From NCBI GenBank assembly GCA_964568855.1, contig CAZMSD010000001.1, forward strand, positions 75,197-139,196: a stretch of 64,000 nucleotides of DNA, written 5' to 3'. Every line of letters begins with the position of its first letter. The stretch's first letter is position 1. The stretch is from an uncultured Bacteroidaceae bacterium (GTDB lineage: Bacteria > CAIWAD01). Position numbers and translations under genes: made by a program. Below are positions 1,765-58,487 of the stretch, piece by piece. The notes beneath the pieces were generated by a model. It was not told where the DNA came from. It did not search any database and saw only the letters and a program-made list of their open reading frames with translations.

Positions 1765-4683
1765 TCAAGGGGACGGCCAGGCGGGCCAGCGCGTGTTGAA
1801 AGCCATGGGATCGATGATCAGCTCGCCCTCGGGACGGGTGGTCTCGCTGCCAATTGCATCCAGGTAGACCGACAGCGCCGTCTTCGCCTCCCCCAGGAAT
1901 GCGTTCCTGAAGGTCTCGCCCAGCTCCCGGGGTTCCAGCACCAGCAGCTCCCGCTTAACCTTCTCGCGATGCTCGAAATCTCCATTGAGCTCGAGCGCCA
2001 GGTATTCCAGGGTCTGCAGTCGCTCGTAGAGGTTGGCGTCGCGACGCTCCAGGTCCTGGACCACCGCGGAACGCAGCTGCTCGAATTCCTCCGGCCGCAT
2101 CTCGCCCAGGCTGGAGATCTCCTGCTCGAGCCAGGTCCAGGCCCGCCGGGCCAGTTCGGCGGCCGGGTACTCGGCGGACTGGATCAGGAACAGGAATCCC
2201 GTTCCCGTGGCCTCGTAGTCCGCCGAGCCGAAGACCGCGTAGCCCAGTTGCTGCTGGGTGCGCAACTCGTTGTAGAAGCCGTGCTCGATCCGGCTCGACC
2301 CGAGCCGCAGCAGGGCCTCCAGGTGCGGGCAGCGGGCTCCGAATTCCACGTAGGTCAGCCAGCAGTGGTTGTCGCTCTGGGTGGAAAAGACCCGCGCCAG
2401 GTGGCGGCCCTCGGGGAGATCCAGGCGCAGTTCGTCCCCGCGCAACTCCCGGGACAGGACGTTCTCCGCCAGGCCGGCATAGAACCGCTCCACCGCCGAC
2501 CGCAGCTCTACGGCTTCCAGGTTGCCGCAGGCCACGCCCTCGAAGGCGCAGTCTTCGTACAGGCCGGCCGCGAATTCGCGCAGCTCCTTAAGCGTGATAC
2601 TTTCCACGAGATCCACCAGGTCGCGGGGATGCAGGCTGCCCCGCGTGAGCAGAACGCTCTCCTCCAGCAGCGCCTGACGGTAGGCGGGGATATACTCGCT
2701 GTTGGCCAGCCTGCGGGCGAGCTCGTCCTTGACGCCCTCCAGGGTCGCCGCGTCGAGGGTGATACGATCCAGGCGCTCCTCAAGATCGCGCAGCAGGGCC
2801 GGCAGGCGCTGGCTGAAGCCCCAGAGGTAGAGGTCCACGCCGTGATCCGTGTCGAGCAGCAGGAACTTGAGTCCCGCCTCCCGCGCGGGATATGCCCATT
2901 CCGCCAGCTCCTGGGTGAGTGCTTTGGCGTAGAGCTTGGTCAGCAGCCGGTTCCGCGGACCGCGCGCCGGCTCGTCGCTCAGCAGGCTCAGCAGGATGCG
3001 GCCCCGGGGCAGCTGGAACACGCTGTCCTGCTCGAACCAGAAGACGCCCCGCTCGTCGTCGATCAGGCGCTGCGGGCGGCATGCCCGGGAGGGCGGAAGG
3101 AGATCCAGGTCGTCCGGGATATAGGGATTGGGCTCGGGGTAGCTCAGGGCGGGATGGCGCTCCGCCGCCCGCGCCCGTCGCAGGGACTCGGGAGACAGGC
3201 GCCGGACCGAGTACTCCACGCCGTAACACGCGTCCGCGTGATCCACCTCCACCTCGGGACTGACGAGCACGGCGTTCAGGCGCTCGGGAACAAGCTGCCC
3301 CAGATAGGCTTGGAACAGCCGCGGGCGATACTCGCGGATCACCATCATGTCCTTCAGGACCTCGGCGCCCGGCCGGAAGTGCATTTCCGAGGCCAGGGTG
3401 GCCACCAGCTCCGCGCCTTCGTACTTGTTCCGGTAGTAGTATCCCAGCTCGCTCATCGTGCGCTCTTCTTCGTAGTAGTAGCGCCTGAGCCCATCCTCGC
3501 GCAGCATGGCCAAGTAAGAGAAGAAGAGCTCGATCACCCGGTCCGTGTCACGCAGGCCCTTCTCGGTCAGGGAGAGATCGACGGTGAAATAACTGCAGTA
3601 ACTGCAGTGCTCCGCGTCCGTCTCGAGGGCCGTGGCCAGGTGCTCGCGCTTGAGCTGGGAGAGCAGCGAGCCGCGACCCTCGTGGCCGATCAGCGAACCC
3701 AGCAGGGCCAGGGGTTTGGAGGCGCTGTGGACCATGGCGGGGGGCAGGGCAAAACCGAGCTGCAGGGTGCGCTGGTCCTGCAGGGGGCGGACGCGGATCA
3801 TCCTGGGCAACTCGCCGGGGTCGTACACTTCTCGGGGAAAACTCGGCTCCTCGAGCTCTCGATCGGGAACCGTCGCGAAGAGCCCTCGCGCCAGCCGCTC
3901 CAGTTCGTCCAGTGACACGACGCCCTGCAGGCAGAGCTTCATCAGGTTGGCCGAATACCAGCGGCGGTGAAACTCCACCATCTCGTCGCGTGATACACCG
4001 CTGAGAGTCTCGCGGTCGCCGGTGGAAAACCTGCGCCGGGGATGGCCCTCCCGGTGCAGCAGCTCCTTGACGCGCTCGATCCTCCAGTAGTCGCTTTCCC
4101 TGTGGATCTGGTGCTCGGAGTGCACCGATTCCAGTTCGCGGTCGATATACTCGGGGTCGAAGAGCGGTGCCGTGAAGAAACCGGCGAAACGGTCCAGGGC
4201 GCCCTCGAAAGCCTCGTGGTTGACCTCGAAGAAGTAGTTGGTCTCCTCGGCGCTGGTGTAGGCGTTGCACTCGCCCTGGTTCTCCGCCAGGTAGCGCTCG
4301 TACTCGTCCACCACCGGGAACTGCTCGGTCCCCATGAACAGCAGGTGCTCGAGGAAGTGGGCCATGCCGGGACGCTCGTCGGGTTCGACGAAGGAGCCCA
4401 CGCCCACGCTCAGGGCTGCGGCGGACTTGTTGGCCTCCGGATCGGAGATCAGCAGCAATTCCATCCCATTGTCCAGGGACAGGACGCGCTGGACGCGGCG
4501 GTCGCCCGGCCGGGGGACGTCCAGGTCCACGATTGACCCGGCGTCGCCCAGATGTCCGCCCTGTGCGGCAGGGACCGTGTCGCGTGACACGTCGGGCGAG
4601 GGGCAGCAGGGAATGCAACCCAGGCACAGGCCGAGCAGCGCCGGCAGGACCGCGCACGCCGCTTTTCGCGTTCTTCCGGTCAT
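1765..4683 (-). CDS. M16 family zinc metallopeptidase (pitrilysin/insulinase-like), secreted
   Basis: HFLEH inverted zinc-binding motif (HxxEH) near the N-terminus and ~970 aa length. Cys-rich signal peptide MTGRTRKAACAVLPALLGLCLGC. Start at ATG 4681-4683 with GGAGGTG RBS; the track ORF extends further upstream in-frame but lacks an RBS. Confidence 0.85.
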   Translation of the reverse strand: MTGRTRKAACAVLPALLGLCLGCIPCCPSPDVSRDTVPAAQGGHLGDAGSIVDLDVPRPGDRRVQRVLSLDNGMELLLISDPEANKSAAALSVGVGSFVEPDERPGMAHFLEHLLFMGTEQFPVVDEYERYLAENQGECNAYTSAEETNYFFEVNHEAFEGALDRFAGFFTAPLFDPEYIDRELESVHSEHQIHRESDYWRIERVKELLHREGHPRRRFSTGDRETLSGVSRDEMVEFHRRWYSANLMKLCLQGVVSLDELERLARGLFATVPDRELEEPSFPREVYDPGELPRMIRVRPLQDQRTLQLGFALPPAMVHSASKPLALLGSLIGHEGRGSLLSQLKREHLATALETDAEHCSYCSYFTVDLSLTEKGLRDTDRVIELFFSYLAMLREDGLRRYYYEEERTMSELGYYYRNKYEGAELVATLASEMHFRPGAEVLKDMMVIREYRPRLFQAYLGQLVPERLNAVLVSPEVEVDHADACYGVEYSVRRLSPESLRRARAAERHPALSYPEPNPYIPDDLDLLPPSRACRPQRLIDDERGVFWFEQDSVFQLPRGRILLSLLSDEPARGPRNRLLTKLYAKALTQELAEWAYPAREAGLKFLLLDTDHGVDLYLWGFSQRLPALLRDLEERLDRITLDAATLEGVKDELARRLANSEYIPAYRQALLEESVLLTRGSLHPRDLVDLVESITLKELREFAAGLYEDCAFEGVACGNLEAVELRSAVERFYAGLAENVLSRELRGDELRLDLPEGRHLARVFSTQSDNHCWLTYVEFGARCPHLEALLRLGSSRIEHGFYNELRTQQQLGYAVFGSADYEATGTGFLFLIQSAEYPAAELARRAWTWLEQEISSLGEMRPEEFEQLRSAVVQDLERRDANLYERLQTLEYLALELNGDFEHREKVKRELLVLEPRELGETFRNAFLGEAKTALSVYLDAIGSETTRPEGELIIDPMAFNTRWPAWPSP

Positions 4684-4721
4684 GATGCACCTCCGCCCTT
4701 CATCCTCGTCGGATGAAGGGT

Positions 4722-5831
4722 TTACTTCAGCAGCGTCAAGGGACGCACGCGCTGCTGGTTGCCCGCGCTGAGCCGGCAGAAGTAGACCCCCGCGGGAAGC
4801 CCGCCCGCATCGAGCAGCAGGCGGTGACGACCAGGGCCGCGGGATGCATCCAGCAGCTGCGCCGCCCGGGCGCCCCGCAGATCGAAGAGCTGCAGGCGGA
4901 CCCGCGCGGGGCGGTCCAGCTCGAACTCGATCCAGGCGATGGGGTTGAAAGGATTGGGCCGGGGAGGCAGCAGGCGGATCCATCCGGGTCGCAGCCCGGT
5001 CGTCTTCCCGTCGAGACCGAGAATCTGCCCGGCGATCTCCTGGTAGAACGCGGCCCGCTCCTCGCTGAGACCGCCTGTGTAACCGAGTCCCTCCGGGCTT
5101 TCTCCCGTGAGGCTGACGTAGAACACACATGCGGTCATGTAGGTGCCCTCGGCGCTCGGGTGGTAGTGGTCCTGCGCCCAGAGCGGAGATTCGGGATCCG
5201 CCGTCAGGGCGGCCCTGAAGCCTTCGCCCGCCGGGGCGATCCCGGCCTCCAGTTCTTCGGCGATGCGGTCGTAGGCCGCCGTCACGGTGTCCTGCATGTG
5301 GAAGTAATCCGCGAATTCAACGGAGCAGCAGTCGTCGATGCACTGCTGCCCGCCGAACTCCCAACCCCAGGTCTGGTAGAACATGGTCGCCGAGTTCTGC
5401 AGGCTGATCAGGCTGTCCAGCAGCCGGGCCGCCGGATACATCCGGGTCTCGCGCCAGTGGTCGATGGTGGGAATCTGACTCTGCTCCTGCAGGATCACGT
5501 GATCCCAGCCGCCCTCGGCGATCAGACCCAGGCTGGTTGGATTCTGGCTGTGTCCTTCCAGCGTGTGTCCGCCGGGCGTGTTGCTCTGAGCCTCGAGGAA
5601 GTGCCCTCCCGACTGTACCAGGTCTTCCAGCTGCCCGGGCAGGTTGTTGAAAAAGGTGTGGCTGTTGCCCAGGAAAAGTACGCGGAGACTGTCCTGTGCG
5701 ACCAGGGAGGGCGCCAGGCTGAAGATCAGTATCGCCGCCAGCGCGGTCCCAGCGGTCGCGATTCCCGTCCGGCCGGTGTCTCCCAGCATCTCCATCGCCT
5801 CAATCCCTGAACCATTCATGTTCATATTCAT
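4722..5831 (-). CDS. SGNH/GDSL-like hydrolase with C-terminal T9SS-type (Por secretion tail) sorting domain
   Basis: GNSHT block after a signal peptide. C-terminal ~75 aa (NPFNPIAWIEFEL...GVYFCRLSAGNQQRVRPLTLLK) matches the type IX secretion CTD pattern. Start is ambiguous between MNMNMN (5831) and MEM (5795). Confidence 0.65.
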   Translation of the reverse strand: MNMNMNGSGIEAMEMLGDTGRTGIATAGTALAAILIFSLAPSLVAQDSLRVLFLGNSHTFFNNLPGQLEDLVQSGGHFLEAQSNTPGGHTLEGHSQNPTSLGLIAEGGWDHVILQEQSQIPTIDHWRETRMYPAARLLDSLISLQNSATMFYQTWGWEFGGQQCIDDCCSVEFADYFHMQDTVTAAYDRIAEELEAGIAPAGEGFRAALTADPESPLWAQDHYHPSAEGTYMTACVFYVSLTGESPEGLGYTGGLSEERAAFYQEIAGQILGLDGKTTGLRPGWIRLLPPRPNPFNPIAWIEFELDRPARVRLQLFDLRGARAAQLLDASRGPGRHRLLLDAGGLPAGVYFCRLSAGNQQRVRPLTLLK

Positions 5832-35359: not shown

Positions 35360-36487
35360 TCATTCTTCCAAGCCCTGGTTTTCCTCCGCTGGATACTGAG
35401 CGGCCGTTCGAAGGTTACGGTCCACCGCCTCGGCCACCGGCGCCAGGCGCTCCATGAATCGCCGGAAGGCTTCAGGCGTGATACTCTGCTCGCCGTCGCT
35501 GCGGGCCCGGCGGGGATCGGCGTGCACTTCCAGCATCAGCCCGTCCGCCCCGGCCGCGACGGCCGCCAGGGCCACCGCTTCCACGAGCCCCGCGTCCCCC
35601 GTCCCGTGCGAAGGATCGGCCACCACGGGCAGGTGGACGGAACGCTTCAGGAGAGGCAGGGCGTTGATGTCGAAGGTGAACCGCGTGGAGGGATCGAAAC
35701 CCCGCACGCCGCGCTCGCAGAGAATCACCCGGGGATTGCCGCTCAGCATCACGTACTCGGCGCCGTTGACCAGTTCCTCCAGCGTGCAGCCGAAGCCGCG
35801 TTTCAGCAGGACAGGCTTGGACTCACGGCCCAGCCTGCGCAGGAGGGGGAAGTTCTGCGAGCTGCGGGAGCCCACCTGGAAAACGTCCGTGAACCGGCCC
35901 ACCAGCTCCACGTCCTCGGCCTGCAGCACTTCCGTGATCACCGGCAGCCCCGTGCTGTCGCCGGCCTCGCGCAACAGCTCAAGGCCCCTGAGTCCCAGGC
36001 CCTGGAAGCGATAGGGATTGCTGCGCGGCTTGAAGGCTCCGCCGCGTAGCCAGCCGGCCCCGGCCTCCTTGACCGCCAGGGCGGTTTCAAGCATCTGCTC
36101 CCGATCCTCTACGCTGCAGGGCCCGGCGATGATCGCCAGCCCCCTGCCGCCAACTTCGTTCCCGCGGCAGGAGAATCGGCTGGCCTCGGCGTGCCAGTTG
36201 CGGGAGGCGAGCACGAATTCGTCCTCCTGCAGAAAGGCGCGGCGCAGGCCCCTCCGGCCGGTCAACCGTTCGGGCAGTCCCGCGTAATCGCCCTGAACCC
36301 GGGCCAGGGCGAAGCAGAATCCAGCGCCTCGCTTAAGGACCAGCTCCAGTCCCAGGCGACGTCCATCGACCAGCAGATCGCGGTAATCGGCCTCGCCGAT
36401 TCCCGGTTCCAGCTCCAGAACCAAAGTGGGAGGACCGGCCGAACCGCTGCAGCGTCCCAGGCCGGGCGTCCAGGTTTCATTTCCCAT
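35360..36487 (-). CDS. 3-deoxy-7-phosphoheptulonate (DAHP) synthase, type I-beta with N-terminal regulatory extension
   Basis: IIAGPCSVE...LRGGAFKPRSNPYRFQGLG and KPVLLKRG...DPSH typical of the DAHPS/KDO8PS I-beta family; ~110-aa N-terminal extra domain. Confidence 0.8.
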   Translation of the reverse strand: MGNETWTPGLGRCSGSAGPPTLVLELEPGIGEADYRDLLVDGRRLGLELVLKRGAGFCFALARVQGDYAGLPERLTGRRGLRRAFLQEDEFVLASRNWHAEASRFSCRGNEVGGRGLAIIAGPCSVEDREQMLETALAVKEAGAGWLRGGAFKPRSNPYRFQGLGLRGLELLREAGDSTGLPVITEVLQAEDVELVGRFTDVFQVGSRSSQNFPLLRRLGRESKPVLLKRGFGCTLEELVNGAEYVMLSGNPRVILCERGVRGFDPSTRFTFDINALPLLKRSVHLPVVADPSHGTGDAGLVEAVALAAVAAGADGLMLEVHADPRRARSDGEQSITPEAFRRFMERLAPVAEAVDRNLRTAAQYPAEENQGLEE

Positions 36488-37190
36488 GCGGGACCGCTCC
36501 TCTCTTGTGGACCGCTTCAGGTGTGCACAGGCCCCGGCTCACCAGGGTCAGGAAACAGCGGACCCAGCGCTCCTGCTCGCTTCGGTCCGCCTGGAAGAGC
36601 CGGGATTCCGGATCGAGATGCTCCAGGTAGAATGCCCGCAGCAGGCCCTCGAACATGGTGTTGAGCAGGAAGGCGCTGCGCTCGAGATCCAGGTTCTCGG
36701 CCAGCTCGCCGGAATCCCGGGCCTCGGCCAGCATCTCGACCAGGAATTCCTGGCTCCGCCGGCTGAGATAGCGCAGTCGCTCCGTGCCGAAGGGCGCGTC
36801 GCCTGAATGCAGCAGGTGGAAGTAGATCCTGGCCAGCCGTGGATGTTCCCGGATGAAGCGGAACCCGGAGCGCAGCAGCATTTCCAGGCGCTCGGGAAGA
36901 TCGCGGCCCTCGCTCTCGGCGCGCACATTCCGCAGGGTGCTCTTCACGCGGTTGAAGGCTACGCGAACGATGCCGTCGAACAGTTCGGGCTTGGAGCGGA
37001 AATACTGGAAGAGGCTGCCCTTGCTGATGCCGGCCTTGCGCACCAGGCTGTTCATGGATGCGCTGCTGTAGCCATGGGTGGCGAATTCGTCCACGGCGGC
37101 GCTGTAGATGCACTCCTGTTTCTCCGCGCTCAGGGTCTCGAAAGCGCGGGTTCCAGGCGAGAGTTGCAGTTTTTCCTTGGATCGAGGCAT
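36477..37190 (-). CDS. TetR/AcrR family transcriptional regulator
   Basis: N-terminal HTH (AAVDEFATHGYSSASMNSLVRKAGISKGSLFQYF) plus a TetR_C-like helical domain. Stop overlaps the DAHPS start by 11 nt. Confidence 0.85.
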   Translation of the reverse strand: MPRSKEKLQLSPGTRAFETLSAEKQECIYSAAVDEFATHGYSSASMNSLVRKAGISKGSLFQYFRSKPELFDGIVRVAFNRVKSTLRNVRAESEGRDLPERLEMLLRSGFRFIREHPRLARIYFHLLHSGDAPFGTERLRYLSRRSQEFLVEMLAEARDSGELAENLDLERSAFLLNTMFEGLLRAFYLEHLDPESRLFQADRSEQERWVRCFLTLVSRGLCTPEAVHKRGAVPHGK

Positions 37191-37191
37191 C

Positions 37192-37221
37192 TGACCACCC
37201 GGTCATTGACCAGGTGGTCAA
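37192..37221. promoter_or_regulatory. tandem palindromic operator-like sites immediately upstream of the tetR start
   Basis: TGACCAcccGGTCA followed by TTGACCAggTGGTCAA; the TGACCA/TGGTCA half-site is repeated four times in alternating orientation. Confidence 0.5.
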
Positions 37222-37237
37222 GTTACCACGGAATGCT

Positions 37238-37285
37238 CGCGGGTGCAAGCGCGGGTGCAAGCGCGGGTGCAAGCGCGGGTGCTTG
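37238..37285. repeat. 12-bp direct tandem repeat (CGCGGGTGCAAG) x 3.7
   Basis: Three perfect copies plus a partial fourth, read directly from the sequence; about 50 bp upstream of tetR. Confidence 0.8.
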
Positions 37286-37499
37286 CTGTGGTAGCTGACC
37301 GTGCCAAAATGAGCAGGGCGTCCGTGACGCCCTGTCTCATCCCGATGATTTTGCACGCGCACAATGTGCGCTCGTACACCAAGACGCGCACGCACCCAGA
37401 AGTGCGCGTGCACAGGTAGTGCACGTGGCTGTCGGAGCGTTTCCGACAACCTGATTCGCGATGCGGTCAGCGACGGCAGCCGCTCTGCCCCGCGGACTT

Positions 37500-37775
37500 C
37501 GCAAGTGGACCGATTCACATGGATCGAGCGGTTCTGAGCGCGTCCAGGCAGTTCAATGCAAGACGCGCCGCCGCAGGAATAGCCCAGCTATTTCAAGAAG
37601 GCGCAACGCCGCAGTGGGCTGCCTGGTGCGCTCCCTTCGGGCTTGCCGCAAAGCGGCCATCTTCAGCGTTACATCTGCTTGAAGTAGGCAAACTACATCT
37701 GCGCAGATGCGCCTTGAATCTGACCACTTTCCGGCAAGCAGAACCCGTCGCTCCATGTGAATCGGTCCACTTGCG
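37500..37775. mobile_element. MITE-like non-autonomous element: 24-bp perfect terminal inverted repeats flanking ~230 bp of non-coding, internally self-complementary sequence
   Basis: cGCAAGTGGACCGATTCACATGGA at 37500-37523 is the exact reverse complement of TCCATGTGAATCGGTCCACTTGCg at 37752-37775. No convincing ORF between them. Local GC drops. Confidence 0.45.
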
Positions 37776-38047
37776 CCGGTCTGCCCAACCGGCGGTGAAG
37801 GAGGGCGCTGCAGAACCCGGGCCAGAGTGTTATCACCTGTATTTCATGGAATTAGATTCCACGCTCAGCCGCAGCCCCTGGTCGTCTTGCACCGGATCGC
37901 GTCAAGTGAACTGGTTCCAGGAGTCCTGGAATTCTGGATCCTCAGGGCCTCCCGAAGTGGTTCAAGTTATCTGACTCCTTCATCAGAATCATTGTGTGAT
38001 CCAGCTGCACATCAATGAATTAACCTCTGGGATGCAGGACTAACGGA

Positions 38048-40168
38048 CTAGCGCAACAGCATGATCCTTCCGTGGAGTTCGACCGGATTCCCGCCGTCGT
38101 CCCCCAGGGACCGCAGGCGCAGCAGGTAGGTGCCGGATGCGTTTCCGCTGAGATCCAGCCGGGTGCTTGCGCCCTGCGCCCGCTGCTGAATGTGCAGGCG
38201 ACCGAGCAGGTCGTAAAGCTCTAGCCGCCAGGTTCTCCCGGCCCCGGCGGGCATTTGCACCTGAAAGGCCCCGTTCCCGGGATTGGGCCGGATCATGAGC
38301 ACTCTGTCCCAGGGATCCGAACTCCCTCCAGCACTCAGCCGGGTTTCGTCCAGCGGGGGCAGGGGCAGGTCCATCCAGCCCGCCTCCGAGACCAGGCGCA
38401 GGGAGTCCATCCAGACCTGCATCTCCCCGGTCATGGGCAGCCACTGCTCCCAGTCCGTGGTGCGGGGCGCCCCGTCCAGCAGCCCGGCCTGGATCAGCCG
38501 GCCGCCATCCTCGAGCATCAGCAGGCGGTCCGCGGCCCGCCGACAGAGCCGGGCGCAGGGAGGGGCCAGGTGCGGCTCGCTCCAATCCGCCAGGCAGCCC
38601 TGAGCGAGATCCCAGACCTCCAGGCCCTCGGGCAGGCAGAGCAGGAGGCGGTCCTCCACCACCAGCATATCTCCGCAGTCGTCGGGAAGCTCCCGGGAAT
38701 CGACCCACTGAGGACTCCAGGGATGCAGGCAGTCCACCAGGTGAACTTCCCCGCTGCCGCGGGCCGCCAGCCAGCGCAGGCCGGTCCGCAGCTCGCGAAT
38801 GCCGGGCAGGGTGATGGCCGATTGGAGCCAGGGCAGCTCTTCTCCGGTCCAGAAGCTGTAGAGGGAATCCTCGTCACAGGCCAGCAGGTAATCCTCGCGG
38901 GACATCGCGCAGACCAGTCCCTCCTGCGCGAGGGTTCCCAGGAGTGCCCCGCCTTCACTGAAGGCGAGAATCTCGTCTTCCAGGATCAACAGGGGACCGC
39001 CGCCGGCCCAGGCCAGGATCCGGGCATCGGGCCAGACGCCCACCGGGCGCGCTTCTCCGCCGGAGAGGCGCAGCAGCAGGCCTTCCGCCTGCAGCCTCCA
39101 TTCCGCGTCCCAGCGGAACTGCCGCTGCAGCGTGCGCAAGGGTCGTCGCCAGTGCCGCTCGTGGCTCCAGGCGTCGTCCCCGCCTCCCATCCAGCTCAAT
39201 AGATCCCGCCTGCAGCTGCCCTGAACCAGGATCCTCCGCTCGTCCAGGGGAAGCAGATCCGGCGGGTCTGCCACTTCGGGAGCGGGCGGCGGGGGACCAA
39301 GGCACTCGGGGGCGGGTTTGCCCTCCGGATGGCGCCAGAGCGCGCCCTGAGCGTCCTCGATCCAGGTCACGCAGGGCAGGGCCCACAGCCTGGTGAATTC
39401 AACGTCCTCCTCCAGGCGGTGGCGCGAGCCGGGTCCGCCCTCGTCCAGCTCGACCAGCCGGCCCTCGGCGTCCAGCAGCAGGACCTGCTTCTCCGCCGCA
39501 TACCAGCCGCGGTGCCCGGGAGGCAGTTCCCCTGCCAGGCGAAGGGTGCCGCGGTCCAAATAGTAGATCCTGAGGTCCAGGCGCAGCCAGAGCCGCCCCC
39601 CCGCTCCGCGCAGCTCCGGCGGCGAAGTCGGATCGGGCTGCCAGGGAGCCAGGGACAGCTGCTCGATGATCAGCGGCTGGAAATCCGCTTCCACCTTGAG
39701 CAGCCTCCCGGATTCCGCCACCCAGACATTGCGGCCGCCCTCGTCCGGCCAGTAGTCCACGATGGGGCCGCCGCACTGCCAGGTGGAGCACCAGCCGCCG
39801 GCGTTGAAGGCCCGCCAGGCTCCCGAGGCGCAGAGCATCCAGCAGCGGTCGCCCGGGGGCAGCGCCCCCAGCAACATGTCCGCGGTGGAGATCACGCGGA
39901 CTTCCTCGCCGGTGTTTCGCTCGATTTGGATATGTCGCAGACCCCAGGCGAATTCCAGCTCACCGCAGCTTTCCAGGCCCTGCCAGGCTTCGTTCCACTC
40001 GACAGCGCTTAGGGAGGTCGCCAGCAGCAGCCCCGCCCCCCGCAGGACCCAGCGCGGGCACTTTTCGACCGTGGCCTTCCTTCGCAGCGGATCTCCTCGC
40101 TCGACTGGTTCCTTCCAGCCGCTGCGGACGCCGCGCTCAACCGTTCCACCCCTTCCATTCCAGATCAT
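38048..40168 (-). CDS. secreted repeat (beta-propeller-like) hypothetical protein with C-terminal T9SS-type sorting domain
   Basis: C-terminal IRPNPGNGAFQV...GTYLLRLRSLGDDGGNPVELHGRIMLLR matches the Por secretion tail; Trp-rich internal repeats. Confidence 0.6.
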   Translation of the reverse strand: MIWNGRGGTVERGVRSGWKEPVERGDPLRRKATVEKCPRWVLRGAGLLLATSLSAVEWNEAWQGLESCGELEFAWGLRHIQIERNTGEEVRVISTADMLLGALPPGDRCWMLCASGAWRAFNAGGWCSTWQCGGPIVDYWPDEGGRNVWVAESGRLLKVEADFQPLIIEQLSLAPWQPDPTSPPELRGAGGRLWLRLDLRIYYLDRGTLRLAGELPPGHRGWYAAEKQVLLLDAEGRLVELDEGGPGSRHRLEEDVEFTRLWALPCVTWIEDAQGALWRHPEGKPAPECLGPPPPAPEVADPPDLLPLDERRILVQGSCRRDLLSWMGGGDDAWSHERHWRRPLRTLQRQFRWDAEWRLQAEGLLLRLSGGEARPVGVWPDARILAWAGGGPLLILEDEILAFSEGGALLGTLAQEGLVCAMSREDYLLACDEDSLYSFWTGEELPWLQSAITLPGIRELRTGLRWLAARGSGEVHLVDCLHPWSPQWVDSRELPDDCGDMLVVEDRLLLCLPEGLEVWDLAQGCLADWSEPHLAPPCARLCRRAADRLLMLEDGGRLIQAGLLDGAPRTTDWEQWLPMTGEMQVWMDSLRLVSEAGWMDLPLPPLDETRLSAGGSSDPWDRVLMIRPNPGNGAFQVQMPAGAGRTWRLELYDLLGRLHIQQRAQGASTRLDLSGNASGTYLLRLRSLGDDGGNPVELHGRIMLLR

Positions 40169-51700: not shown

Positions 51701-52210
51701 TCAATCCGTCATGAATCCGGCCAGCAGCTCGAGGAGGGTGCTGCGCTTGGCCAGGGAAATCTCGCGACCGGAAAGGGGGAAATGCTCGATCGAGCGCGCC
51801 AGGGCCCGGAGTTCGCGAACGCTTAGCCGGTTCAGGTCCGTGGAAACGGGTAGGGCCGGAACCGCCGCTTCTGGTGCCGCACTTACTCGCGTCGCGGGCC
51901 CGCTGCCTCCGCCCTCCAGTCTCCACGAGTCGCGGCTGAGGGACTGCACCATGTCCATGATTCCCGCGGCGGGCTGAGGGATTACGTGCGTGGAAAGAAC
52001 CAAGCCCACTCGCGCCGCCGCGCGTTCGCCCGCGTTCACCGCAGCCTTGACGGCGGCTACATCACCCGATACGCAGATGGTCACGATGGCCGGCCAGGTC
52101 AATTGGCGCTTTACCAGACTGACTCGAGCGGCCTTGAGCATGGCATCGCAGGCTTCGACCGCGGCCACGAGACCTCGCGTTTCGATCATGCCCAGGGCCT
52201 GATTCTTCAT
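51701..52210 (-). CDS. BMC-H microcompartment shell protein (PF00936 type) with ~85-aa C-terminal extension
   Basis: ALGMIETRGLVAAVEACDAMLKAARVSL...IVTICVSGDVAAVKAAVNAGERAA...VIPQP is a BMC domain, followed by an extra helical-looking tail (LSVRELRALARSIEHF...LLELLAGFMTD). Confidence 0.75.
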   Translation of the reverse strand: MKNQALGMIETRGLVAAVEACDAMLKAARVSLVKRQLTWPAIVTICVSGDVAAVKAAVNAGERAAARVGLVLSTHVIPQPAAGIMDMVQSLSRDSWRLEGGGSGPATRVSAAPEAAVPALPVSTDLNRLSVRELRALARSIEHFPLSGREISLAKRSTLLELLAGFMTD

Positions 52211-52247
52211 GGAATGCCGGCGGAGGGGCGGCCCGTCCGCCTGAAAA

Positions 52248-52526
52248 TCAGCCCTTGCGGGGCAGAATCGACTCCACTTCGGCATGCGGGCGCGGAATCA
52301 CGTGGACCGAAACCACTTCGCCCACCTTCTCCGCTGCGGTGGCGCCGGCGTCCGTGGCGGCCTTGACGGCACCCACGTCTCCTCGCACCATCACGGTTAC
52401 ATAACCGCCGCCCACCTGCTCGCGCCCGATCAACTCGACCTTTGCAGCCTTGACCATGGCATCCGCAGCCTCGACGGCACCCACGAGACCTCTGGTTTCC
52501 ACCATGCCGAGGGCTTCAAGCGACAT
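52248..52526 (-). CDS. BMC-H microcompartment shell protein (PduA/EutM/CcmK-like)
   Basis: [34 protein letters not shown]...[23 protein letters not shown]...VHVIPRPH is a near-canonical PduA-type sequence. GGAGGAT RBS 5 nt upstream of the ATG. Confidence 0.85.
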
Positions 52527-52733
52527 CTGACATCCTCCAAGCTGTATTGAAGCAGCGCCGTCCCGACCGGTCCTGAGGGCTCGTTCCGCCCCGGAAATTG
52601 AATGAGATAACTTAGGAAAATCAGGTCTTTCCGCCTGCTTCGGCAGACAGCCGCGGCTTGAGGTCACACCTCTGCCCCGCCGCACGAAGGATGGCGGGAC
52701 CGGACCGTGGAGAGGGAACGCTCTTAAGGGGAG

Positions 52734-58177: not shown

Positions 58178-58248
58178 AGGCGGCGACCAGATTCGAACTG
58201 GTGATGGAGCTTTTGCAGAGCTCTGCCTTACCACTTGGCTACGCCGCC
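58178..58248 (-). tRNA. tRNA-Cys: tRNA-Cys (anticodon GCA)
   Basis: Cloverleaf folded by hand: acceptor GGCGGCG/CGCCGCC, D-arm GCC..GGC, anticodon loop CTGCAAA, T-arm ACCAG-TTCGAAT-CTGGT. Coordinates anchored to the neighbouring track ORFs. Confidence 0.85.
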
Positions 58249-58272
58249 GCAGAGTGCCTTTCGGCGGTCTGA

Positions 58273-58345
58273 AGCGAGAGACGGGATTCGAACCCGCGAC
58301 AACCACGTTGGCAACGTGGCACTCTACCAACTGAGTTACTCTCGC
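58273..58345 (-). tRNA. tRNA-Gly: tRNA-Gly (anticodon GCC)
   Basis: Acceptor GCGAGAG/CTCTCGC, anticodon stem-loop CCACG-TTGCCAA-CGTGG, T-arm GCGGG-TTCGAAT-CCCGT. Confidence 0.85.
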
Positions 58346-58414
58346 AAGGCCTGTCGCGGGCACAAGAAAGGGAATCCGGAGCTCCCCGTCAAGCGCTCGC
58401 CTAAGCGATTCCGA

Positions 58415-58487
58415 TGGAGCATAGCGGGATCGAACCGCTGACCTCTTGACTGCCAGTCAAGCGCTCTCCCAGCTGAGCTAATGCCCC
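58415..58487 (-). tRNA. tRNA-Ala: tRNA-Ala (anticodon GGC)
   Basis: Acceptor GGGGCAT/ATGCTCC with the G3:U70 wobble pair that defines Ala identity; anticodon loop CTGGCAG; T-arm AGCGG-TTCGATC-CCGCT. Confidence 0.85.

Follow-up and report, generated by a model that had tools for sequence, protein, structure and literature searches.

The 64,000-nucleotide stretch of contig CAZMSD010000001.1 analysed here, which originates from an uncultured Bacteroidaceae bacterium and is referred to as the window, contains a long inverted repeat at positions 37500–37775, upstream of a tetR-aroG-men operon. The locus prompts us to ask if the inverted repeat belongs to a mobile element, and of which kind, or forms a regulatory hairpin of the operon. 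A first-pass annotation had read it as a MITE (miniature inverted-repeat transposable element) or as the remnant of a pair of insertion sequence (IS) ends. The reading that we favour, with a probability of roughly 0.55, is that window positions 37504–37771 are an intact, non-autonomous copy of a mobile family of ~266 bp that is moved in trans by an enzyme reading the folded structure, most likely through an HUH/Y1-type single-strand route. The family, which is mobile and non-coding and occurs in distant bacteria, is apparently undescribed; literature searches, which were not exhaustive, found no description of a 266-nt branched cross-phylum element.

Copies of the element and insertion into a coding gene

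The window contains no second copy of the element by exact and 3-mismatch arm searches, sensitive BLAST or nhmmer. As a proxy for a DNA search, the translated plus-strand frame of the element was compared with 1.84 billion representative proteins, and 16 matches were obtained (best E=2.5e-21). The matched open reading frames (ORFs) are 81–89 residues long and Arg/Ala-rich, with the ATG in the left arm and the stop codon formed at the right terminus. Some of them are partly frame-shifted, and one is a tail fused to a genuine radical-SAM enzyme. Because of the shared start and stop in the arms, the frame shifts and the fusion, the matches are translations of a conserved nucleotide element and not of a protein. 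The DNA of the protein matches was fetched and searched with nucleotide (nhmmer) profiles, which yielded 12 distinct full-length copies, including that of the window; one of the 12 is decayed (255 nt), and the others measure 265–268 nt. The first-pass annotation had proposed a search of the genome for additional copies; the 11 found besides that of the window belong to unrelated hosts, among them Variovorax paradoxus and a relative of Thioalbus. The copies of the family are as follows.

Window: the copy under study
L042, L043, L044, L047, L048, L049, L050 and L053: copies at other loci
L045 (sequence same as L046): copy in a Thioalbus-like contig, 266 nt, inside a radical-SAM gene
L054: copy of Variovorax paradoxus 2u118, 266 nt, with AGGG...CCCT ends
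L004: decayed copy in the metagenome-assembled genome (MAG) OY769902.1, 255 nt, with an exact arm 18-mer as its right end

Mobility of the family is shown by a pair of filled and empty sites, in which a family element is inserted into a coding gene. In L045, the element begins at codon 206 of the radical-SAM gene and is followed by an unannotated 84-aa ORF. In silico deletion of the element restores a single reading frame, and the reconstructed protein has an intact ortholog in Thioalbus denitrificans (295 aa, 96% identity, 100% coverage). The empty site reads CAGCT/GGGTCTC and the filled site CAGCT[AGTGTAC...GTACACT]GAGGCTG, with flanks that are 95–97% identical. The insert is exactly 266 nt long and lies between T and G with zero target duplication, and the empty site (CTGG) does not contain TA. 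The first-pass annotation had reported no direct repeats flanking the window copy; their absence is confirmed and, judging from the L045 site, appears to be a property of the family. To see whether the split gene is still under constraint, synonymous and nonsynonymous changes were counted, with ratios of 16:8 for its N-terminal part and 6:5 for the C-terminal one.

The insertion sites are diverse across copies but share a preference at the bases next to the element. Of the 10 aligned copies, eight have T as the left host base (P=1.6e-4), and in five a C comes before it; T is also found in L053 and L054. As a sequence pattern alone, the left host dinucleotide is CT in five of the 10 copies and CA in the window. 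The right host base is A or G in nine of the 10 aligned copies. The window flanks, AA...TT, are complementary to each other and do not form a direct repeat, and the pre-insertion sequence of the window would have read CGCA/TGCG. In Variovorax, the element is observed inside the T/AA stop codon of the upstream gene (L054 2848–2853; L055). The host ORF is unchanged because the 5′ AG of the element recreates a TAG stop.

The copies are sparse and widely dispersed. DNA-level identity is 76–77% for L042 and L043 and drops to remote levels for the others. Each locus of 5–20 kb contains one copy, with zero others in about 440 kb of fetched DNA, and the complete 1.3-Mb Variovorax replicon carries a single full copy. 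The G+C content of the hosts ranges from about 50% to 70%. The sites have nothing in common: one copy separates skp from lpxD, one follows mnmE in the vicinity of dnaA, one separates sdhD from the gene after it, one is flanked by a methyltransferase gene and the gene gap, and one is at the Variovorax stop codon. Copies are found in either orientation with respect to the adjoining genes. Plasmids and phages, searched by BLAST with the window copy, and viral contigs, scanned for sequence patterns, gave no matches.

Three observations concern the host loci. L049 (GCA_050749845.1, JBOGRZ010000869.1) is labelled a Candidatus Micrarchaeaceae archaeon yet carries bamA-skp-lpxD, a Gram-negative bacterial operon, and the archaeal label is probably a binning error. 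Cas3-like helicase, HIRAN, WYL and PIN/MazE genes are located at L045 1–3304, a few kilobases from the gene-splitting copy, and this region may be a defence or mobile island. The T. denitrificans locus (L051) has different genes beyond the NTP-transferase gene that it has in common with L045.

Fold, conservation and decay

The window copy is divided into the following features; the plus strand is defined as the orientation that scores best against the nhmmer family profile (229.9 bits versus 110.1 bits for the minus strand), and the parts of the fold are given without strand.

37504–37771, plus strand: element proper, 268 nt, AGTGGACC...GGTCCACT, with boundaries from the family alignment and the L045 filled/empty site
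37500–37536: 5′ arm of the outer stem, from complementarity and fold
37536–37633: hairpin A, 98 nt, from the fold and covariation (helices 3–6)
37634–37640: central mini-hairpin CC-TTC-GG, from the fold, inside the conserved CTCCC-NNN-GGG (helix 7 invariant)
37641–37739: hairpin B, 99 nt, from the fold and covariation (helices 8–11)
37715–37729: motif TGAATCTGACCACTT within hairpin B, identical at 13 of 15 positions to the right outer arm TGAATCGGTCCACTT
37739–37775: 3′ arm of the outer stem, from complementarity and fold

The arms at 37500–37523 and 37752–37775 are perfect reverse complements over 24 bp, as the first-pass annotation had described, and pairing reaches further than described, to 37500–37536 and 37739–37775 (37 nt, 92% complementary). 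The 23-mer core of the arm has two matches in the window versus 0.00 expected from 100 dinucleotide-preserving shuffles. The outermost CGCA (37500–37503) is host flank and pairs by accident with TGCG (37772–37775). The first-pass description of a long imperfect hairpin holds with respect to the strong self-complementarity (z −11 to −13) but not with respect to shape. The minimum-energy fold is branched, as RNA or DNA and on either strand, and consists of four parts: the outer stem, hairpin A, the mini-hairpin and hairpin B, which meet at a junction with almost zero unpaired bases. The outer stem has 24 perfect pairs followed by 3 and 6–7 more. Against shuffled controls, the fold has z-scores of −13.2 (plus) and −12.1 (minus) as RNA and of −11.3 as DNA. 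The symmetry of the window copy is Watson-Crick in nature because only 4 of the 108 pairs are G·U. The G+C content of the element (58.7%) is lower than that of the window (65.8%), as had been claimed; the low value is unspecific to the element because the entire 857-bp intergenic region is at ~59%.

Across the family, the termini 5′-AG...CT-3′ are common to the copies and usually read AGTG...CACT. The head AGTG, which is base-paired with the other end, is present in 9 of 12 copies and is replaced by GTGG in the sub-lineage of the window, and 11 of 12 copies end in CT. The interior contains shared motifs (CAAGGCGC, GCAACG, CTCCC-NNN-GGG and GCCTTG). Hairpin A carries the conserved motifs CAAGGCGC (window variant CAAGACGC) and GCAACG..GCAGTGG, and hairpin B carries GCGTT and GCGCCTTGAATCT. 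Local alignment of TGAATCTGACCACTT in hairpin B with the right arm gives P of about 0.002 against shuffles, and this motif is possibly an internal repeat of the terminal motif.

In contrast to its sequence, the pairing of the outer stem is maintained. The stem of 25–35 bp differs in sequence in most copies, only L042 and L043 being close, yet is 96% Watson-Crick. In 10 copies, standard pairs occupy 91.3% of the cells, compared with 33–40% when the partners are slid by 1–3 columns, and the covariation score is 0.636, compared with about 0.1; none of 500 shuffles reached the observed pairing and covariation values. Double compensatory changes are observed in 74 of 95 pairs among the 11 intact copies. 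The U·G pair 174:217 of hairpin B is present in 11 of 11 copies, and in the plus-strand structure G·T outnumbers A·C by 42 to 15. The consensus fold energy is −145.9 kcal/mol for the plus strand versus −152.1 kcal/mol for the reverse strand. The loop of the mini-hairpin varies between TTC (as in the window) or TTT and GAA (L042, L043), the reverse complement of TTC. This TTC/GAA swap fits template-switch events typical of DNA palindromes, as if the mini-palindrome flipped independently.

The interior contains no real gene, in agreement with the earlier statement that no credible ORF lies between the arms. The plus-strand frame is open across the entire element, but its translation has zero Pfam matches, and some stretches are read in a different frame in other members of the family. 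For annotation, the family gives rise to spurious 81–89-aa "hypothetical proteins" and false C-terminal extensions, and genes can be split.

Copies of the element also decay by deletion. An 18-mer of the arm was scanned over collections of genome and metagenome contigs, which returned 15 and 20 stretches, respectively; the source genome is outside both collections because neither scan returned the window's own locus. Most matches are chance or coding, including the metG HIGH-motif and Bryobacteraceae genes. Seven genome matches, which come from the MAGs OY769902.1 and CAXXQY01, and the metagenome matches L031 and L039 form a compact palindrome, CTAGTGGACCGATTCA-CA-TGGATCGGTCCACTAG, which is intergenic and located directly after stop codons in both orientations. 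The arms of the compact MAG palindromes match the window arms at 22–29 nt, and the terminal 20 nt of the window 3′ arm are identical to the right end of the decayed L004 copy and to these palindromes. A natural deletion is observed in Variovorax SPNA7, in which the locus orthologous to that of 2u118 (flanks 97.6–97.9% identical) contains a 51-nt palindrome only. What is left in SPNA7 is the outer portion of each arm and a further 10 nt from the right arm, with about 210 nt of the interior deleted. Because SPNA7 shows such a stub at the 2u118 locus, the compact palindromes in the MAGs are best read as deletion remnants of the window's sub-lineage. The window arms are identical to sequences in far lower-GC genomes, although arms generally differ between copies, which suggests recent horizontal spread.

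In OY769902.1, the compact palindrome is adjoined by an IS630-type IS. The possibility that the palindrome is the end of this 1.17-kb repeat (L001/L004) was rejected, as the repeat is an IS with its own terminal inverted repeats (TIRs), GTGCCAGTTTAGATCAAG, which are unrelated to the element, and is inserted at the flanking CTAG. The two IS copies (L001 ~4420–5577 and L004 ~3696–4853) are 99.9% identical, have TA duplications and contain HTH_32 and DDE_3 ORFs split by an A8 slippery run. Because the left flank GGTCCAC-TA, which is a remnant end, is found in both IS copies, compact remnants may be preferred IS630 targets. A link of the palindrome to type IX secretion system (T9SS)-cargo genes was rejected because it is not universal. 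At L012, a mini version GTGGATTGATCCAC directly follows the compact palindrome (5146–5165), and a second, terminator-like palindrome, AACCGGCGATGTCA-TT-TGATATCGCCGGTT, has a similar layout of 14-nt arms and a 2-nt spacer (5184–5213). At L023 6040–6062, 23 of 23 nt equal the window arm together with its CGCAA flank; this stretch belongs to a methionyl-tRNA synthetase gene and encodes the HIGH-motif region (ASGPIHMG). This match is judged a coincidence; the arm also reads ASGPIHM in one frame.

Possible routes of mobilisation and the window locus

In the favoured reading, an enzyme acting in trans would recognise the folded structure of the element rather than a fixed terminal sequence. A single-stranded intermediate would be cut and rejoined at ...CT/AG... 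by an HUH/Y1-type transposase, as for REP/BIME and IS200/IS605 elements, and insertion would favour a site after T (often CT) and before a purine. Mobilisation in trans is supported because the 64-kb window encodes no transposase; no transposase domain, Y1_Tnp included, is found in its ORFs of >=100 aa. The lack of a target-site duplication (TSD) at the L045 site, the CT end and the left-host T preference are HUH-like features. TnpA-REP enzymes act on folded single-stranded DNA and cleave at CT or CA beside a hairpin, which is preceded by a GTAG or GTGG guide tetranucleotide, and the Y1/HUH enzymes of REP/BIME and IS200/IS605 leave no duplication (PMC8266576).

Several observations weigh against an HUH/Y1-type route. 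The gene tables of the window and the other loci contain no HUH/Y1 gene near the copies, and copies are few, with one in the 64-kb window and a single full one in the 1.3-Mb Variovorax replicon. The conclusion that no TSD is formed is drawn from a single filled/empty pair, in which 3 substitutions fall within 10 nt of right-flank sequence, and the symmetric T/A host preference also fits a TA-targeting DDE enzyme (IS630/Tc1). Both strands give equally good consensus folds, and the G·T excess is therefore no proof of a single functional strand. Template-switch correction can yield arm-to-arm "covariation" without selection, and the cross-phylum conservation of the interior is without explanation. 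More tentatively, and with a clearly lower probability than the HUH/Y1-type route, the family may constitute a new structure-defined class. Its ~266-nt single strand, folded into a four-way junction (or a cruciform), would be read by its shape, its AG...CT ends and its interior and, at roughly one copy per megabase, would pass from phylum to phylum via an enzyme not yet linked to repeat families; or the interior might be a functional RNA carried between hosts.

The best surviving alternative, which we regard as unlikely, is a classical DDE MITE of the IS630/Tc1-mariner type, with GTG...CAC ends at a duplicated TA, moved as double-stranded DNA via its TIRs. Of the 12 copies, nine have TA directly before GTG, seven have TA directly after CAC and five have it at both ends, and the flanks often read CTA/.../TAG, with CTAG/TA being the IS630 target. 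An IS630-family IS with TA duplications flanks the compact palindrome in OY769902.1. TA-dinucleotide targets are tied to IS630-Spn1 and RUP in the review of Delihas, and TA termini, TIRs, stem-loop transcripts and ORF fusions are typical of MITEs in bacteria (PMC2229807). However, the empty L045 site reads TG and the filled site TA...TG, for which a TSD model needs 1–2 extra substitutions and a model without TSD needs none. Deviations from TA are mainly found at the outer (host) positions (6 versus 2), and the window's AA...TT flanks are the complementary pair noted above. The IS630 copies in OY769902.1 have the unrelated TIRs GTGCCAGTTTAGATCAAG, and the arms are the least conserved part of the element, which is the opposite of transposase-bound TIRs. 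The remnant of an IS end pair proposed by the first-pass annotation finds no counterpart in the data: no cognate IS with matching ends was found in the window or beside any copy, and the arm sequence varies between copies.

The conservation data would also be compatible with a functional structured RNA, or an RNA-based mobile element, made from the plus strand, for which mobility would be secondary. The strong covariation in all helices, the conserved loops and bulges, the invariable U·G pair and the G·T excess on the plus strand all point in this direction, as do the gene-like low copy number, with one copy per locus, and a length kept within 3 nt. We nevertheless consider this identity doubtful. 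Rfam covariance models applied to window positions 36000–39000, L042, L044 and L046 gave nothing relevant at E<=1, only chance hairpin matches, and the identity of a riboswitch or small RNA was rejected on this basis. The reverse strand folds equally well, the orientation to neighbour genes is mixed and is antisense to both in the window, and no promoter-like site is found in or near the window copy (37000–38200 searched). Moreover, one copy splits a coding gene, only a stub is left of another in a sister strain, and a near-perfect duplex of 28–35 bp is unusual for a stable functional RNA.

Less probable still is a folded single-stranded DNA substrate of a tyrosine or serine recombinase, resembling attC or the forked hairpin of CTX phage, that is integrated without duplication. 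The L045 site without a TSD, the branched hairpin fold, the conserved termini and the retention of structure with a free stem sequence, as in attC, agree with such a substrate. The copies show no attC R-box motifs, cassette arrays or adjoining integrase, and their insertion sites are diverse rather than a single att/dif site.

The element is located inside an 857-bp gap separating two minus-strand genes, with the following neighbours.

38048, minus strand: end of the stop codon of a T9SS-cargo gene (706 aa, T9SS sorting domain; gene annotation)
37314–37334, minus strand: terminator-like hairpin followed on the way from the element to tetR, with a T-run
37190, minus strand: start of the tetR regulator gene, after which come the genes for DAHP synthase and the menaquinone genes

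On the minus strand, the order is the T9SS-cargo gene stop, a 272-nt spacer, the element, a 165-nt spacer, the terminator-like hairpin, a 12-nt tandem repeat, an operator-like palindrome and tetR. Because of this order, the element, which is antisense to both neighbours, belongs to the 3′ region of the T9SS-cargo gene and not to the tetR promoter. The effect on expression of the tetR-aroG-men operon suggested by the first-pass annotation has no support, given that the element is 310 bp upstream of the tetR start with the terminator-like hairpin in between and no promoter-like site; nothing in this analysis shows regulation of tetR by the element. If transcribed, the long duplex could mark the end of a transcript or be a target of RNase III, which has been reported for other bacterial MITEs. 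Population variants of the window locus are all 99.9–100% identical. An orthologous empty site for the window copy was not found, the nearest TetR homolog being 57% identical and non-syntenic. A retron was rejected, as the flanking genes encode TetR and the T9SS-cargo protein without a reverse transcriptase.

Other features are observed in the same gap and elsewhere in the window. A perfect 12-nt tandem repeat of CGCGGGTGCAAG with about 4 copies occupies 37238–37285, between the terminator-like hairpin and the tetR start. The operator-like palindrome TGACCACCCGGTCA / TGACCAGGTGGTCA at 37192–37220, located upstream of tetR at a distance of 2 nt from its start codon (37190, minus), is probably the TetR autoregulatory site. 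The region 37340–37420, between the element and the terminator-like hairpin, is rich in GCGCAC/GTGCGC and contains several short inverted repeats. Two adjoining BMC-domain (microcompartment shell) genes and a tRNA-Cys/Gly/Ala cluster (51701–52685 and 58178–58487) are unrelated to the element.

That the palindrome arose by chance, or that it is a regulatory hairpin or an operator peculiar to the tetR-men locus, to which the single intergenic copy of the window upstream of tetR might point, is effectively refuted by the family and the filled/empty site, with homologous copies at unrelated loci and hosts, zero chance matches expected in shuffles, a separate operator-like palindrome at the tetR start and the terminator-like hairpin in between.

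Comparison with known systems

The closest parallels in the favoured reading are the REP/BIME/REPIN elements mobilised by RAYT enzymes (TnpA-REP, Y1 HUH transposases). These elements are likewise non-coding palindromes, mostly intergenic and just 3′ of genes, and have two inverted terminal units that are able to form one long hairpin. CT at the junctions is also common to both, as would be the action in trans. A REP stem has GTAG as its conserved head, and one system tolerates GTGG (PMC8266576); the short head of the element is AGTG, or GTGG in the sub-lineage of the window, and is placed within the stem. REPs are 20–50 nt and REPINs about 100 nt in length, with hundreds of copies, and are largely lineage-specific; in contrast, the element is 266 nt long, low-copy and cross-phylum and has two extra conserved internal hairpins. 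RAYT genes are typically flanked by REPs, and no RAYT gene is seen near any copy in the gene tables of the loci. REPs and REPINs reach tens to hundreds of copies per genome, from which the element departs with its single copy per locus and its one full copy in the 1.3-Mb Variovorax replicon.

IS200/IS605 elements and PATEs resemble the element in that no duplication is formed, DNA structure is required, cleavage occurs beside a hairpin and insertion is 3′ of a short target. IS200/IS605 elements have distinct, non-complementary subterminal hairpins on the left and right and a conserved 4–5-nt target, whereas the ends of the element pair together and only T (or CT) is preferred on the left. A PATE was rejected, given that the ends pair with each other and that the preference is limited to position −1 (T) and partly −2 (C).

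The Correia/NEMIS and RUP MITEs have TIRs, TA-like termini and long stem structures, are inserted by or into genes with spurious ORF fusions and have size variants that differ by an internal segment, all of which are reminiscent of the element (PMC2229807). They are <200 bp long, A+T-rich, high-copy and genus-confined, with TA duplications and a simple hairpin (PMC2229807), whereas the element is GC-rich, 266 bp long, branched, low-copy and cross-phylum and shows no duplication at the one testable site. Correia elements (CREE/NEMIS; 100–155 bp, about 24–26-bp TIR, TA duplication, Neisseria) were rejected on the basis of size, fold, hosts and the lack of duplication (PMC2229807). Integron attC sites also depend on stem structure over sequence, with conserved terminal boxes and recombination without duplication. 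However, attC sites are 57–141 bp long and have RYYYAAC/GTTRRRY boxes and cassette arrays beside an integrase, none of which applies to the element. An attC identity was rejected because the termini are AG...CT and the contexts are unrelated single insertions. The ends of Correia elements presumably begin with TATAGTGGATT, which would resemble CTAGTGGA(C/T) over the first ~9 nt. The Caulobacter CIR has two independently folding arms joined by a linker and is conserved between species; at about 110 bp, without a closing outer stem, with GANTC methylation sites and confined to alphaproteobacteria, it differs from the element in size, outer stem and host range and was rejected.

With respect to MITEs in general, the element has TIRs, with 24 perfect pairs in the window and an outer stem that is 96% Watson-Crick across copies. 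The 266-nt insert at T/G, the single decisive locus, has no TSD, and many near-identical copies are not observed (one per window or locus and one per 1.3-Mb Variovorax replicon). An IS630-derived MITE is at odds with the empty site CTGG, which does not contain TA, and with the presence of TA on both sides in only 5 of 12 copies. The first-pass MITE reading is thus apt for a non-autonomous element that moves and has inverted repeats at its boundaries, and it does not extend to the absence of a TSD at the L045 site, the low copy number, the absence of a cognate IS from the window and the neighbourhood of the copies, and the conserved interior. The element is MITE-like in a broad sense and resembles the MITE/REPIN class of bacteria (PMC2229807, PMC8266576) but differs from each specific family compared in defining features.

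Small non-autonomous elements in bacteria are usually lineage-restricted, high-copy and defined by their ends, and the present family inverts this pattern. Its ends vary yet always pair, and its interior and four-helix shape are kept from an FCB-type marine organism to Beta- and Gammaproteobacteria. This pattern points to an unassigned mobilisation machinery that reads structure and possibly to a cargo function. The mechanism is directly testable, since one host, Variovorax paradoxus 2u118, is in culture and since full, deleted and empty alleles occur in nature.

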